This document shows, piece by piece, positions 299 to 8,061 of a DNA stretch of 64,000 bases. This stretch comes from Escherichia coli O157:H7. GTDB taxonomy: Bacteria; Pseudomonadota; Gammaproteobacteria; Enterobacterales; Enterobacteriaceae. Numbering within the stretch: position 1 is the first letter of the stretch; the number at the start of each line of letters is the position of its first letter. The stretch lies in NCBI RefSeq assembly GCF_013167455.1, contig NZ_CP038328.1. One strand, given 5' to 3'. The notes below the pieces were generated by a model. The model worked only from the letters and a program-made list of their open reading frames with translations, was not told the origin of the DNA and ran no database searches. The position numbers were made by a program, and so were the translations under genes.

Positions 299-345
299 TC
301 ACCTTTCTCCGGGCGTAAAAAAACCGCCTCAGCGGTTCTCATCAT

Positions 346-1025
346 TCATGACTGTGCTGCAAAGCTCAGCGCGTCTTCCAGCGCCGCAAACGGATCCACC
401 TCCGGCTTATCCTCATCCTCGCCCCAGCAGAGCATGGCGTCCTTCAGTGCAACATTCATCCCCTGTGCCCCGAAAACCGCTTTCACGATCTGTGCATTAC
501 GGATATCCCCGCGCTCATCACCCAGCGGGGACACCCTGTCAAACTCCATCCACATCATCGCCTCGCTCGCACTCAGGCTGTGCCGCAGTTCGGATAAGGT
601 GCGCCCCAGACGGAGCGCAAGTCGCATCAGAAAGCGAATTTCCGGGCGGGCTACTTTTTTCTGGCCGACTCTGCATCAGCGATCAGTTCCAGTGCCTGAC
701 GCAGCAACCGGGCATGTACCGGACCATAGACGGCCAGCACCTGCTCACGGTCGTCCGGAGTGAACACCCGTTGCAGGTCAGTATCACACAGGACATCGCA
801 GAACAGCGTCACATCCGCTTCCAGGTTACGGCGGGTTTTCGCCACCACCGACAGGGTATCGTCATCCTCTCCATCACCATTGAGCACTTCCTGCCACAGA
901 TACCAGGCCTCTGCCGAAGGCTCCCGCAGCACCACGCTGACATTACCCCATTCCGGCACCTTCACCGTTTTATGACGAAACCCTGACAGTCTGGCCAGCG
1001 CCAGCGTTTTCAGATCCTTTTTCAT
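346..1025 (-). CDS. tail assembly chaperone GT-like fusion made by programmed -1 frameshift
   Basis: Slippery heptamer A_AAA_AAG immediately before the G stop (plus 654-660); the -1 frame continues without a stop into ORF 346..627 (…MRLALRLGRTLSELRHS…). Confidence 0.6.
651..1025 (-). CDS. tail assembly chaperone (lambda gpG-like)
   Basis: ORF 651..1073, start taken at MKKDLKTLALARLSG (ATG 1025); lies between major tail gene and tape measure; ends ...AGA AAA AAG TAG. Confidence 0.7.
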   Translation of the reverse strand: MKKDLKTLALARLSGFRHKTVKVPEWGNVSVVLREPSAEAWYLWQEVLNGDGEDDDTLSVVAKTRRNLEADVTLFCDVLCDTDLQRVFTPDDREQVLAVYGPVHARLLRQALELIADAESARKK

Positions 1026-1039
1026 GATGACCCATCCCC

Positions 1040-1756
1040 TTATCCGGCGGCTGCGCTCACTGTCACGGTGCATTCAACAGACGTCACACTCTGTGCTTTC
1101 TCTGCCGAATCGGTCACCACGCAGGTATATTTCCCCGCATCAGCGGACTGCGCACCTGGCTTACTGAAGGTGTCTGTCGTCTGCCCGTCAACCGGCTGAC
1201 CATCCTTCTTCCAGGCGTATTTATACGGCGGCGTTCCCCCGTTGGCACTGACTGACATTGTCAGCAGCGCACCTGTATTCACGGTAAGTGTTTTATCCAG
1301 ATTTTTCACAAACGCCAGCGGTACCACAAAGGACACCGGTTTGCCTTTCATACGCAGTGAAAACGTTGCTGCCACCACGCCGTTGGTACCGGATGACCAG
1401 GTGTGCTGACGCACTTCCGCCAGGAACTTAAAGCCCTTACCGGACGGAAACTGCACCTTAAACGCATACACCGTGTCATTGTCATAGGCATCACGCAGGG
1501 CGTTCTGGGCCTGATTCAGATAAAAATTACCCGACATGGAAATCTCGGACGACGCCCCCAGACCGTTGATGTTCTCCTGCTCTGTGGAGCAGAGCGTGGT
1601 CACATCAATATCCTGTTTCTGACCGGCGGTGAACTGGACTTCCTTGATGGTGCAGTCCAGGCGCAGATATTCCGCCTTATCCATAGTTTCAGCAGTCGCC
1701 GGGGCAGATGAAATCATCACCTGCGTCAGCTGTGAGCGTTCATACAAAGCAGACAT
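1040..1756 (-). CDS. major tail protein with C-terminal Ig-like domain (lambda gpV-like)
   Basis: ORF 1040..1825; start chosen at MSALYERSQ (ATG 1756) preceded by AGGAGG; C-terminal sequence …TPPYKYAWKKDGQPVDGQTTDTFSKPGAQSADAGKYTCVVTD… is Ig-like. Confidence 0.75.
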   Translation of the reverse strand: MSALYERSQLTQVMISSAPATAETMDKAEYLRLDCTIKEVQFTAGQKQDIDVTTLCSTEQENINGLGASSEISMSGNFYLNQAQNALRDAYDNDTVYAFKVQFPSGKGFKFLAEVRQHTWSSGTNGVVAATFSLRMKGKPVSFVVPLAFVKNLDKTLTVNTGALLTMSVSANGGTPPYKYAWKKDGQPVDGQTTDTFSKPGAQSADAGKYTCVVTDSAEKAQSVTSVECTVTVSAAAG

Positions 1757-1821
1757 TCTGCCTCCTGATAATAAAAAACCCGCACGCGGCGGGGTATGGG
1801 TTTTGTAGAAAAAAGAAAAAG

Positions 1822-5874: not shown

Positions 5875-6085
5875 TCGCCATGCTCCGCATCACGTTTCTT
5901 TTTCTGACCTGCCGGACGTCGCGCTGTGATGTACTCCGCCTTCCCCAGGCGAACCAGCACCTCCGCACACGGCTGTGCCACATCACGGATATCCCCGGCC
6001 CGGGCATCATGCGTGCCCTGCAGATACTGGATTTTTGCCATCTGTTACTGCGGGAAGCTCGCGCCTCCCGCCCTCCTCATCAGAC

Positions 6086-8023
6086 TCAGCCACCGGACGC
6101 AGTTCCGTAGTTCACACCGGTGATCACCGCCACTGCCGCGGTACGGCGACGACGCCAGTTGATCCAGCGCTCCGCACGGATGGCCACGCTGCCGGTCTGA
6201 AACATGGAGACCAGTTCCACCGGTGACGGTGTGCTGCTGTCGCTGGTCGGTTCAGACTGCATCTCCAGTGACGCTTCACGGGACATATCCACCGCCACAC
6301 CGCCGTCATCAGCCAGATAAATATCCGGTGCATTCACCAGTACCAGCTGGTCACCCACATACTGGGAGACAATCACCGGCAGCCCCTGGAAGGTCCCGCC
6401 CAGCAAGGTCATGTCCGGATATTCCTTCTGCCCCAGCGCATTTTTACGCATGGACAGCGCCAGGGCATTCGTGCTGGACATCAGCCAGACCGCACCGGTG
6501 GGCTGCAGATTTGCCGTCACAAACTGGCCAAACGCGGCCTCGGCATCCGCATCCGGGTTACCGGTTGATGCCGTGCCCTTCACATCATGGGTGATGGACG
6601 CCGGGGAGACATCCGCCACCGCCGCTTTTTTCGGGTCCACAAAGTCTGTGTCCAGACGCGCCACCACCGCTTCCGCCAGCGCATTACGGACCAGTGCATC
6701 AGCAGCCGGACTGGAAAAACGGATCAATTCTTCCGTCAGTACCGCAATGGCCGACACTTTCGCATGACTGAAGGTGATGGATTCAAAATCAAACTTCGTC
6801 AGGGGTCTGGCCTTACCCTCACCCACCCAGCCGGCAGCACCACCGGACACCTGGGCATGCACGCGGATATTGAACGGCACCTGACGAAGTGCAGGGATCC
6901 CGCCCTGACCAAATCGCCCGATAATGGTCTGCGGACGCAGGTAATCAATAAAGTCCTGCGCATATTCCTGGTATTCAGACAGGCTGCCTGCCCACTGCGG
7001 GTCCGTGGTGGTCCCTGCCCCCACCGCCGATTTCAGGACATGATGCAGACGGCTGTCATCCGGATACTGACGACGGGCCACTTCCAGGGCTTCAGAGCGG
7101 ACACCTTTAGCCGCGGCCAGTGATTTGGCAAAGCGGGCGAAACCAATCCCCTTCTCCAGTTTCTGCTCAACACGGATCACCGGCGCTGAAGCCACCGTGG
7201 CCACATTCCCGTTACCGGCCTGTTTCACCGGCTGTGCCGTGGCGGCCTTACTGGTTTCCAGTTCACGCAGACGCTTCAGGTGCGCATCCACCTGACGGAT
7301 TTCCGCTGCGGTGTTGTCGTAGTGCTCTTCCTCTTCCACATCCAGTGTGCGGCCTTCCTCTGCGGCTTTGTTCATGATCTCCTCAAGGGAGGCTGCCAGC
7401 GCCGCACGCTTGTTTTCAAAACTTTTAATCTGTTCACCAGTATTCATTGCTGACTTTTCCTTATGAAAAGAGGTTATTGACTGTGCCGAAGCGCCGGCAG
7501 AAGATGCGATTTTCACCACCGGTTTCCGGTTGCCGGACGCGGCAGAAAACGGGCGGTCGAAATATTTAATGGTCCGGATGGTGCATTCCGCATTCGCGGG
7601 CACGGTGACGGCAGACACCTCCATCAGCTCCCAGCGCAGAAAATGCAGTCCGCCTCCGTCCAGATAAGTGTATTCATGGGGCCGGAAGCCCACAGAAAGC
7701 CCCCTGACCAGCCCGGTCTTAATGGCAGCCCAGGCCTCATCCAGCCGGGCTGCCATCTGGGAGGGCATCCCCGGCTCCGGCTTCACCAGCATTGCCGTGA
7801 TTTCCAGCCCTTCCCTGACCCGACGCACCGTACACTGGCCTACAGGGCGGGAATGGTCATGCTGCCAGAGAAACGGGATCGTACTGCCAAACTCCGCCCC
7901 CTCCGGCTCCAGGATGTCACCATCCCGATCCGGAGAAGGCGTTGACGCAATCCCGGTGATCACCCGTTCATCCTCACTGAAGGATTTCACCGTCAGCAGG
8001 GAACAGGCCCGTTTAAGAGTCAC
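6086..8023 (-). CDS. prohead protease - major capsid protein in-frame fusion (HK97 family)
   Basis: 645 aa; N-terminal …ITGIASTPSPDRDGDILEPEGAEFGSTIPFLWQHDHSRPVGQ…GLSVGFRP…VSAVTVPAN (prohead protease signature); C-terminal coiled-coil then …GWVGEGKARPLTKFDFESITFSHAKVSAIAVLTEEL… (HK97 capsid signature); internal AAGGA-ATG at 7447. Confidence 0.7.
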   Translation of the reverse strand: MTLKRACSLLTVKSFSEDERVITGIASTPSPDRDGDILEPEGAEFGSTIPFLWQHDHSRPVGQCTVRRVREGLEITAMLVKPEPGMPSQMAARLDEAWAAIKTGLVRGLSVGFRPHEYTYLDGGGLHFLRWELMEVSAVTVPANAECTIRTIKYFDRPFSAASGNRKPVVKIASSAGASAQSITSFHKEKSAMNTGEQIKSFENKRAALAASLEEIMNKAAEEGRTLDVEEEEHYDNTAAEIRQVDAHLKRLRELETSKAATAQPVKQAGNGNVATVASAPVIRVEQKLEKGIGFARFAKSLAAAKGVRSEALEVARRQYPDDSRLHHVLKSAVGAGTTTDPQWAGSLSEYQEYAQDFIDYLRPQTIIGRFGQGGIPALRQVPFNIRVHAQVSGGAAGWVGEGKARPLTKFDFESITFSHAKVSAIAVLTEELIRFSSPAADALVRNALAEAVVARLDTDFVDPKKAAVADVSPASITHDVKGTASTGNPDADAEAAFGQFVTANLQPTGAVWLMSSTNALALSMRKNALGQKEYPDMTLLGGTFQGLPVIVSQYVGDQLVLVNAPDIYLADDGGVAVDMSREASLEMQSEPTSDSSTPSPVELVSMFQTGSVAIRAERWINWRRRRTAAVAVITGVNYGTASGG

Positions 8024-8040
8024 ATCAGCCTCCTGAAAAT

Positions 8041-8061
8041 AAAAAAACCGCCGCAGCGGTT
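8041..8061 (-). terminator. stem-loop plus U-tract upstream of capsid gene
   Basis: Plus strand aaaaaaaccgccgcagcggtt; on the minus strand a 6-bp GC stem followed by U7; located between terL and the capsid gene. Confidence 0.4.

Follow-up and report, generated by a model that had tools for sequence, protein, structure and literature searches.

The late genes of a lambdoid prophage raise a simple question: why would a run of structural genes, all read in one direction, carry terminator-like hairpins in its interior, immediately before some of the genes that it serves? The locus considered here lies in a 64,000-nucleotide (nt) stretch of Escherichia coli O157:H7 DNA (contig NZ_CP038328.1 of assembly GCF_013167455.1), referred to below as the window, in which a lambdoid prophage spans position 1 to ~34000 with its late genes on the minus strand. 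Directly before the genes for the capsid, major tail and tape-measure proteins are found three short hairpins, each followed by a run of U, which are termed T_MCP, T_MTP and T_TMP. An earlier note on this DNA had placed terminator-like elements in these three gaps on the minus strand, and a direct reading of the sequence bears this out. We consider, with moderate confidence, that T_MCP, T_MTP and T_TMP are probably intrinsic terminators embedded in a single late operon that is antiterminated by Q. In what follows, we describe the elements and their conservation, place them within the operon, and weigh the other roles that such hairpins could have.

Anatomy of the Terminator-Like Elements

8036-8062, minus strand: T_MCP, a hairpin with a U-rich tail, in the gap between the genes for TerL (terminase large subunit) and capsid
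1773-1793, minus strand: T_MTP, in the gap between the tail terminator and major tail genes
1806-1835, minus strand: a second hairpin, AGGTCAC/GGT/GTGACTT with a U-rich run, 5' of T_MTP
317-339, minus strand: T_TMP, a hairpin within a run of 7 U, in the gap between G/T and the tape-measure gene

The hairpin of T_MCP (8062-8045) reads GAACCGC-TGCG-GCGGTTT and is followed by TTTTATTTTC, a U-rich tail that can also be written as UUUUAUUUUC; the energy of its stem is around -10 kcal/mol. It occupies a gap of 63 nt between the TerL stop codon (8087) and the GTG start of the capsid-protease gene (8023), and both this GTG and the AGGAGG of the capsid gene (8034-8029) come after the element. T_MTP (1793-1773) consists of CCCGC-CGCGT-GCGGG followed by TTTTTTATTATC, with UUUUUU after the stem, and AGGAGG and the major tail ATG (1756) are found directly 3' of it. 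The second hairpin in this gap (1835-1819) is weaker and overlaps the stop codon of the tail terminator gene (1822-1824). T_TMP (337-315) is made up of AACCGC-TGAG-GCGGTT and then TTTTTACG, its U-rich tail being UUUUUACG in RNA letters, after which come GGAGAAAGG and the tape-measure ATG (298). The gap here, from the stop of the T open reading frame (ORF; 346) to that ATG, is 47 nt.

The stems contain 5-7 pairs, of which 4-5 are G-C, enclose loops of 4-5 nt, have energies of about -7 to -10 kcal/mol and are followed directly by 6-7 consecutive U at all three sites. All three elements are intergenic and lie on the late strand, the opposite strand having no U tract. The hairpins of T_MCP and T_MTP begin 24-29 nt beyond the preceding stop codon, and T_TMP comes after the rarely translated T ORF, so terminating ribosomes should not melt them. 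Every readable feature of an intrinsic terminator (stem, loop, U tract, orientation and an untranslated position) is present at each site.

Most neighbouring late genes overlap by 4 nt and only four gaps are longer than 40 nt; three of these four carry a hairpin with a U run directly after it. A motif scan of window positions 1-10300 for a stem energy of -7 kcal/mol or lower and at least 5 U in 8 returned exactly three matches on the sense strand, all within ~220 nt of intergenic sequence; neither the coding sequence nor the opposite strand gave any. The fold z-scores of whole segments were unremarkable (T_TMP -0.46, T_MTP +0.16, in windows of 70-96 nt); since short terminator hairpins are inconspicuous in windows of this length, the motif scans and comparative data were relied upon. 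Rfam gave no match above the gathering score at 317-339, 1773-1835 or 8036-8062 when window positions 1-36000 were searched, and the three elements have no annotation in the Stx-phage records examined that carry this module.

The elements had been taken for a near-identical family, which holds for T_MCP and T_TMP, identical over ~23 nt save for one loop base, and not for T_MTP, which shares their architecture but not their sequence. With up to 2 mismatches allowed, the pattern AACCGCNNNGGCGGTTTTTT is matched in the 64 kb by T_MCP and T_TMP only (0.03 matches expected), and these two are the most alike of 1378 pairs of terminator-like sites in the window, at 20/24 as against 17/24 for the next independent pair. 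A repeat family was nevertheless rejected, since close relatives carry a second T_TMP allele and the likeness is therefore lineage-specific. A dispersed repeat would show several near-identical copies at non-homologous sites, and two copies were found in 64 kb at up to 2 mismatches.

The window's pair is paralleled in Pseudomonas phage IME307, where the terminator between TerL and capsid (7960-7995, GAGCCCGCCTAGAGCGGGCTTTCTCGTTTCTGG) closely resembles another that lies downstream of Q (3160-3195, AGCCCAGCCTAGCGCTGGGCTTTTTCGTTTCTGC). Look-alike terminators within one genome could reflect either concerted evolution or a shared sequence constraint.

Conservation in Close Relatives

It had been proposed that the elements would be conserved at the same positions in related phages, and a survey of relatives found that they are. 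The close set comprises 80 IMG/VR loci whose capsid protein is at least 95% identical to that of the window. T_MCP is found in 23 of 24 non-redundant close relatives, and the changes in its hairpin either fall in the loop or convert an A-U pair to G-U, which preserves pairing, while the length of the U run varies. T_MTP is kept in 11 distinct relative sequences; the second hairpin at 1806-1835 is less conserved, one allele breaking a stem pair and losing 7 nt of the U run. At T_TMP, close relatives carry an alternative allele, AAACCTGC/TGTG/GCAGGTTT (AAACCUGC/UGUG/GCAGGUUU in RNA letters). The two alleles differ by two double compensatory changes within flanks that are otherwise near-identical, and the helix is kept.

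The TerL-capsid junction is present in 1233 of 5426 complete E. coli genomes, and the module reaches up to 7 copies per genome. A mosaic-junction explanation was rejected, as all 35 close relatives with enough flanking sequence retain the same head and tail modules.

Conservation in Distant Relatives, HK542 and Lambda

The distant head set contains 64 non-redundant loci with capsid proteins 42-58% identical to that of the window. In 20 of them the capsid gene has a terminator no more than 100 nt upstream, and in 29 it has one just downstream. From a background of 0.27 per kb, ~1.7 would be expected per 100-nt bin, and the enrichment is therefore more than 10-fold both before and after the capsid gene. 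Many of the upstream stems are mutually unrelated, and the U tract lies 0-8 nt from the Shine-Dalgarno sequence in every relative examined. Phage IME307, whose capsid protein is 48% identical, has the same gene order, including a split portal, and its TerL-capsid gap contains GAGCCCGC-CUAG-AGCGGGCU and UUCUCGUUUCU, followed by GGAGAG and ATG.

A side observation concerns the locus IMG/VR 2571042765_000001, where a sequence like the 3' end of a tRNA (GGTTCAACTCCAACG) is found ~110 nt upstream of the capsid gene. It lies just upstream of the pre-capsid terminator, a place that TerL usually takes in this family.

No tail-module homologues were found in the distant, D3-like capsid relatives, and the tail sites were therefore tested in a separate set of relatives. 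Phage HK542 (NC_019769), Klebsiella phage ST13-OXA48phi12.2 and phage 611R1 encode major tail proteins that are 49-73% identical to that of the window, and all three carry terminators, with different stems, before both the major tail and the tape-measure genes. The GenBank record of HK542, the major tail protein of which is 49% identical, lists "rho-independent terminator" features within the late operon, and one of these separates the tail terminator gene from the major tail gene; the terminator before its tape-measure gene is unannotated. In a wider survey of 78 E. coli and Klebsiella tail-module loci, with 32 distinct upstream sequences, the tape-measure gene is immediately preceded by a terminator hairpin and U tract in every one of these sequences but two, as judged by eye. 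At least 10 unrelated stems occupy this site across E. coli and Klebsiella, compensatory changes affect 5 of 7 consensus pairs of the hairpin, and the U run is held at 5-9 U in all but two of the relatives' alleles while the stems vary.

Phage lambda itself carries AGGCCGCC/TGTG/CGGCTT and U7 in the D-E gap, before its capsid gene E. A further hairpin follows E, and hairpins stand before and after J; there are no gaps and no terminators at U-V or T-H. The gene E hairpin and U7 lie at lambda 6099-6134, together with an extremely U-rich leader (UUUUUUUACGGGAUUUUUUUAUG), and the hairpin after E, at 7163-7180, is GC-rich; the RefSeq record annotates neither.

In siphophage tails, the tape-measure protein is present in few copies per virion. 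The view that the hairpins precede the genes for the most abundant structural proteins consequently holds for capsid and major tail and fails for the tape measure. Such hairpins are also found in HK542 and lambda before low-copy genes (tape measure, J and gp18) and after abundant ones, and the pattern is therefore that of a hairpin in nearly every sizeable gap rather than a mark of abundant genes. The elements are conserved in position and structure and not in sequence, which suggests that selection maintains fixed positions amid sequence turnover.

The Hairpin after the Capsid Gene

The fourth large gap follows the capsid gene and also harbors a hairpin.

6050-6071, minus strand: post-capsid hairpin, GCGGGAGGC/GCGA/GCTTCCCGC, with no U tract (z = -2.6)

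At -20 kcal/mol this hairpin is strong. It sits between a Shine-Dalgarno-like GAGGAGG (6078-6072) and the ATG (6041) of an ORF of 73 amino acids (aa). It covaries in the close E. coli relatives, with G-C replaced by A-U in 4 of 12 alleles, and with G-U replaced by G-C. A GC-rich hairpin just 3' of the capsid stop codon was also seen in most of 63 distant relatives when their sequence listing was read by eye, and 34 of the 63 additionally have a U tract as defined for the motif scan.

The layout of this gap resembles that of phage T4 gene 38/25, where folding of a hairpin places the Shine-Dalgarno sequence close beside the start codon. The ATG of the 73-aa ORF has no Shine-Dalgarno sequence of its own (-2.2 kcal/mol), the relatives' alleles retain the Shine-Dalgarno-like sequence, the hairpin and an 8-nt spacer (window 6039-6078, minus strand), and the same layout of Shine-Dalgarno-like sequence and hairpin is found in the post-capsid gap of HK542.

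The Late Operon and its Q Region

The first 9 kb of the window share 98-99.7% identity with the head-tail module found in Stx1a, Stx2a and Stx2c phages of the long-tailed type. The order of the late genes, taken from public annotation and PHROG matches, is as follows in window coordinates.

9745-10308, minus strand: TerS
8087-9748, minus strand: TerL, the gene 5' of T_MCP (annotation)
6086-8023, minus strand: protease-major capsid fusion, 645 aa (phrog_617, E = 3.8e-259, and annotation)
5820-6041, minus strand: 73-aa ORF
4510-5874 and 3290-4513, minus strand: portal, as two overlapping ORFs
2967-3293, minus strand: Ad1
2606-2956, minus strand: Hc1
2163-2609, minus strand: Neck1
1822-2166, minus strand: tail terminator protein gene, 5' of T_MTP (phrog_347)
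1040-1756, minus strand: major tail protein gene (phrog_158, E = 2.8e-117)
651-1025 and 346-627, minus strand: tail assembly chaperone G and the T ORF, 5' of T_TMP (phrog_344, phrog_337 and annotation)
1-298, minus strand: tape-measure gene, 5' end only, continuing beyond the window edge

The lysis, terminase, head and tail genes are all on the minus strand. The further features on which an antiterminated operon would depend, together with two sequences that had been put forward as related copies of the elements, are these.

19792-20157, minus strand: Q antiterminator gene (phrog_79, E = 2.6e-51; a Q family protein in a relative's annotation)
19172-19199, minus strand: candidate pR' late promoter (TTTACA, 16 nt, TATGCT), from promoter prediction and leader homology
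19116-19140, minus strand: copy in the pR' leader, a weak hairpin CCGC/TGA/GCGG with U7
33232-33258, no strand assigned: copy near the early-left end, AAAACCCGCC/TTCA/GGCGGGTTTTTT, an A-tract/U-tract terminator (z = -3.45)

The layout is that of a Q-antiterminated late operon, in which the Q gene is followed, on the strand of the structural genes, by the late promoter and a leader that carries a terminator. T_MCP, T_MTP and T_TMP lie inside one co-oriented late cluster, downstream of Q and the pR' region, and as the earlier note had held, they are not simple operon ends.

The leader hairpin (19135-19123, with U7) falls at about +30 to +49 of the predicted pR' transcript. Window positions 19172-19112, the ~60 nt after the promoter with the hairpin and U7 included, are 87% identical to positions 15804-15864 of LC567827, an Stx1 phage, and that stretch lies 258 nt upstream of a tR'-like terminator. 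The published distance from PR' to the 3' end of StxS is the same (PMC7547250). The LC567827 stretch was therefore judged to be the start of the Stx1 phage PR' transcript, and the copy at 19117-19140 would accordingly be the first terminator-like hairpin of a pR' leader. This leader, from a prophage that is not an Stx phage, is thus homologous to the first ~60 nt of an Stx1 phage PR' transcript (the long form of StxS); a promoter-proximal terminator-like hairpin goes unmentioned in the passages of the StxS paper that a term search returned (PMC7547250).

The second copy, at 33232-33258, sits between convergent genes, a PrtN-family gene on the plus strand and a hypothetical gene on the minus strand, as mapped onto an annotated relative, and is an ordinary operon-end terminator. 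Both sequences are terminator-like, as had been claimed, but they are ordinary terminators in other contexts (a pR' leader and a convergent-gene gap), and their likeness to the late-operon elements is generic.

Several other observations were made along the prophage. The two portal ORFs (454 aa and 407 aa; window 3290-5874, minus strand) overlap at ATGA and match the two halves of a single PHROG family of 859 positions, phrog_2271; as the same split is found in Pseudomonas phage IME307, it is conserved and not a sequencing frameshift. Between the Q stop codon and the late promoter, an ORF on the plus strand (19265-19711) encodes a protein with a lipoprotein-type signal sequence (MNKMTVLLLSATIISGC; phrog_3152), and this lipoprotein-like insert puts ~600 bp between Q and pR'. 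Rfam identifies the AgvB anti-small RNA at 16641-16702 (plus strand), convergent with STnc100 at 16704-16897 (minus strand), as well as C4 antisense RNA (25501-25588, minus strand) and isrK (25613-25689, minus strand) in the antirepressor region. Three tRNA genes (Arg-tct, Arg-tcg and one with anticodon cat) are located at 17667-17918 (Rfam/ARAGORN).

Proposed Conditional Termination in a Q-Dependent Operon

Terminator anatomy, conservation, the presence of Q and pR' and the published mechanism of Q together make conditional termination the most economical mechanism for these elements. The Q nozzle is reported to preclude the formation of terminator hairpins, and the Q-loaded polymerase is described as termination-deficient (PMC9388147). 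A polymerase that had not started at pR' would lack Q; the GC-rich hairpin would form on a U-rich RNA-DNA hybrid and the polymerase would release. Those stopped in this way would include polymerases that had read through from a moron promoter, begun spuriously within the operon or leaked in the lysogen, so that the terminators would keep the structural genes tied to the Q switch. During lytic growth, the Q-loaded polymerase would disallow hairpins in its RNA exit channel and so pass all of the terminators. After read-through, the hairpins would fold in the finished mRNA, marking the few junctions that have no translational coupling, and would probably also act as blocks to 3' exonucleases and provide structure-free, U-rich leaders for the next cistron.

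The U tract also supports this reading: it is kept at the three sites while the stems change and is absent from the conserved post-capsid hairpin, so that the requirement for a hairpin does not by itself account for it. There is also precedent. In the conjugation operon of pLS20, multiple terminators within 37 kb, acting together with processive antitermination, are proposed to keep spurious transcription in check, and spikes in the RNA-seq signal stop at these internal terminators (PMC8191782). The genome paper of the P22-like phage L describes terminators within late operons as common, with roles that are not known, and offers as candidates either partial termination or the blocking of transcription that is not antiterminated (PMC8022706); the idea of such terminators with such roles is thus already published. 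Published Term-seq in strain Sakai is described only for the pR'-tR' region (PMC7547250).

Several points weigh against this reading and hold our confidence in it at a moderate level. Termination of unmodified polymerase, read-through under Q and any effect on expression are deduced from sequence alone. The dangerous lysis genes are located upstream of the three elements, and the benefit of insulating the structural genes would therefore be modest; no strong sense-strand promoter-like site is predicted within the structural module. About two-thirds of the distant relatives have no pre-capsid terminator and lambda has none at U-V or T-H, from which it follows that the elements are dispensable. 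Finally, insulation alone fails to explain why hairpins flank the capsid and major tail cistrons on both sides, an arrangement that also fits a role in stability or translation.

Alternative Explanations

The two-sided arrangement is accommodated by supposing that the hairpins punctuate the mRNA for processing or stability after read-through, flanking the cistrons of abundant proteins, a view that is compatible with conditional termination and that we hold to be possible though somewhat unlikely. Both 3' stem-loops and 5'-terminal stem-loops stabilise E. coli mRNAs: a 3' hairpin would block 3'-to-5' exonucleases, a 5' hairpin left by cleavage would slow the 5'-end-dependent attack of RNase E, and the capsid and major tail-G-T segments would then outlive their neighbours and give more protein. 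The window's capsid gene does lie between T_MCP and the post-capsid hairpin, and the major tail, G and T genes between T_MTP and T_TMP; hairpins flank the protease and capsid genes and the major tail gene in HK542, and gene E in lambda. The post-capsid hairpin, GC-rich in most of the 63 distant relatives by eye and covarying in close E. coli relatives, points the same way, and Ray and Pearson (1974-75) reportedly found differing functional half-lives among lambda late mRNAs. Against this, a block to exonucleases has no need of a U tract, yet one is conserved at the three sites, and a hairpin 5' of a gene protects the segment upstream of it (TerL, tail terminator or G/T) unless cleavage occurs just 5'. 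The stems are also short (5-7 bp, ~ -10 kcal/mol) and weaker than the post-capsid hairpin at -20 kcal/mol. A literature search on late-mRNA processing around capsid genes and on the control of lambda late-gene translation returned nothing usable.

The proximity of the U tract to the Shine-Dalgarno sequence invites a different explanation, namely that each element is a translation-initiation cassette. The hairpin would lock up the upstream RNA, and the U-rich strand beside the Shine-Dalgarno sequence would serve as a landing site for the ribosome (protein S1), giving strong, uncoupled initiation; the resemblance to a terminator would be tolerated since Q overrides it. The spacing of 0-8 nt in every relative examined accords with this, as do AGGAGG directly after UUUUUUUAUUUUC at the capsid gene and UUUUUUAUUAUC at the major tail gene, the UUUUUUUACGGGAUUUUUUUAUG that precedes lambda E, and the fact that the genes concerned are among the few that do not overlap their upstream neighbour. 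The same cassette, however, stands before low-copy genes (the tape measure here, J in lambda and gp18 in HK542), and short gaps in compact genomes force the U tract close to the Shine-Dalgarno sequence in any case. Nor does Shine-Dalgarno strength separate these genes from coupled neighbours: it was tried as a mark of abundant genes and rejected, several coupled neighbours having AGGAGG just as capsid and major tail do. On this evidence we judge a translational role to be unlikely.

The last two explanations can be combined. Cassettes of hairpin, U tract and Shine-Dalgarno sequence might bracket the cistrons of abundant virion proteins in lambda-, HK97- and D3/Stx-type late operons, with a selected role that is post-transcriptional, so that they, and not transcription, would set the stoichiometry of capsid and tail. 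Once Q-loaded polymerase had read through, the cassettes would mark out stable stretches of mRNA, with the U tract serving in addition to load ribosomes, and terminator activity would be a tolerated or secondarily useful side effect. This proposal is speculative, and we would not expect it to prove correct.

Partial attenuation even under Q, suggested before as a way of setting protein ratios, appears doubtful. A fraction of the Q-loaded polymerases would be removed at each site and the resulting step-down in transcript would help to set protein ratios. T_TMP is placed where expression should drop, with the major tail gene and G on one side and, on the other, the tape-measure and minor tail genes, whose products are low-copy. 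HK542 has terminators that follow its capsid and major tail genes, and the phage L paper names partial termination as one of two candidate roles (PMC8022706). T_MCP and T_MTP, though, would cut the mRNA for abundant proteins relative to that for TerL and the connector genes, which is the wrong direction, and the Q-loaded polymerase is described as termination-deficient (PMC9388147). Sampson et al. (1988) reportedly explained the ratios of lambda late proteins chiefly by differences in translation initiation along a late transcript of roughly even level.

It is very improbable that the elements are the 3' ends, or Hfq-binding modules, of small RNAs (sRNAs) whose source would be the 3' parts of terL, the tail terminator gene or T, in the manner of the prophage sRNAs of enterohaemorrhagic E. 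coli. A hairpin with poly-U does constitute an Hfq-binding 3' module, these prophages are rich in sRNAs (PMC4104026, PMC7547250), and AgvB, STnc100, C4 and isrK are found elsewhere in the window; there is, against this, no Rfam match at the three sites and no predicted sense-strand promoter-like site upstream within the structural module, and published prophage sRNAs map downstream of pR' and not to structural genes (PMC4104026). Least credible of all is the idea that the resemblance arose by chance, or that the elements are copies of some small repeat or mobile sequence that plays no part in expression: the similarity of T_MCP and T_TMP is unusual and the Pseudomonas relative also has two look-alike terminators, but the near-identical copies number only two, many close relatives carry a different T_TMP allele of the same fold so that the likeness belongs to one lineage, flanking repeats and target duplications are absent, and the strong positional enrichment and compensatory changes point to selection on function.

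Significance and Relationship to Known Systems

The head-tail module that carries these elements is found in roughly one in four complete E. coli genomes and also in long-tailed Stx1, Stx2a and Stx2c phages. Given this spread, an element that gates or tunes the late transcripts of the module would affect phage yield and, indirectly, the spread of toxin per induced cell. Terminators that stud processively antiterminated operons are an acknowledged puzzle (PMC8022706), for which the window offers three compact, well-defined sites. The layout extends to lambda gene E, where genetics is easy.

Hairpins are known to set differential mRNA stability in several systems, including the RNase III sites of T7 and the T-phi terminator after its capsid gene, the REP sequence of malEFG, and papBA. 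Stem-loops in these systems likewise flank the gene of the most abundant protein; the window elements differ in having full U tracts and no long duplexes of the RNase III type.

The pLS20 conjugation operon, with its conAn system, is likewise a long operon of a mobile element, in which intrinsic terminators recur that can be passed only by polymerases started at the proper promoter (PMC8191782). It differs in its antitermination machinery of RNA and protein, in its Gram-positive host and in having experimental support.

A further comparison is with the tR' terminators of lambda and the Stx phages, which respond to Q and lie downstream of pR'. Like these, T_MCP, T_MTP and T_TMP are intrinsic terminators that would be met by polymerase started at pR' and are expected to be overridden by Q, and the window's own pR' leader carries a look-alike hairpin with U7. 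In contrast, tR' controls the operon in its entirety and gives rise in lysogens to the sRNA StxS (PMC7547250), whereas the window elements are found 11-19 kb further downstream, between structural genes.

The nearest counterparts are the late-operon terminators of HK542 and phage L, which share the order of hairpin, U tract and then Shine-Dalgarno sequence and, in HK542, the positions as well. The stem sequences of HK542 are unrelated to those of the window, and the TerL-capsid site of the window is part of another head module, one that is D3-like and has its protease fused to the capsid protein. Elements of this kind are known, and one is annotated in HK542, a relative with a homologous tail module; the instances in the window and the D3/Stx-type TerL-capsid site are unannotated in the records examined. 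Intra-operon terminators are not a surprise but an expected feature of lambdoid late operons.

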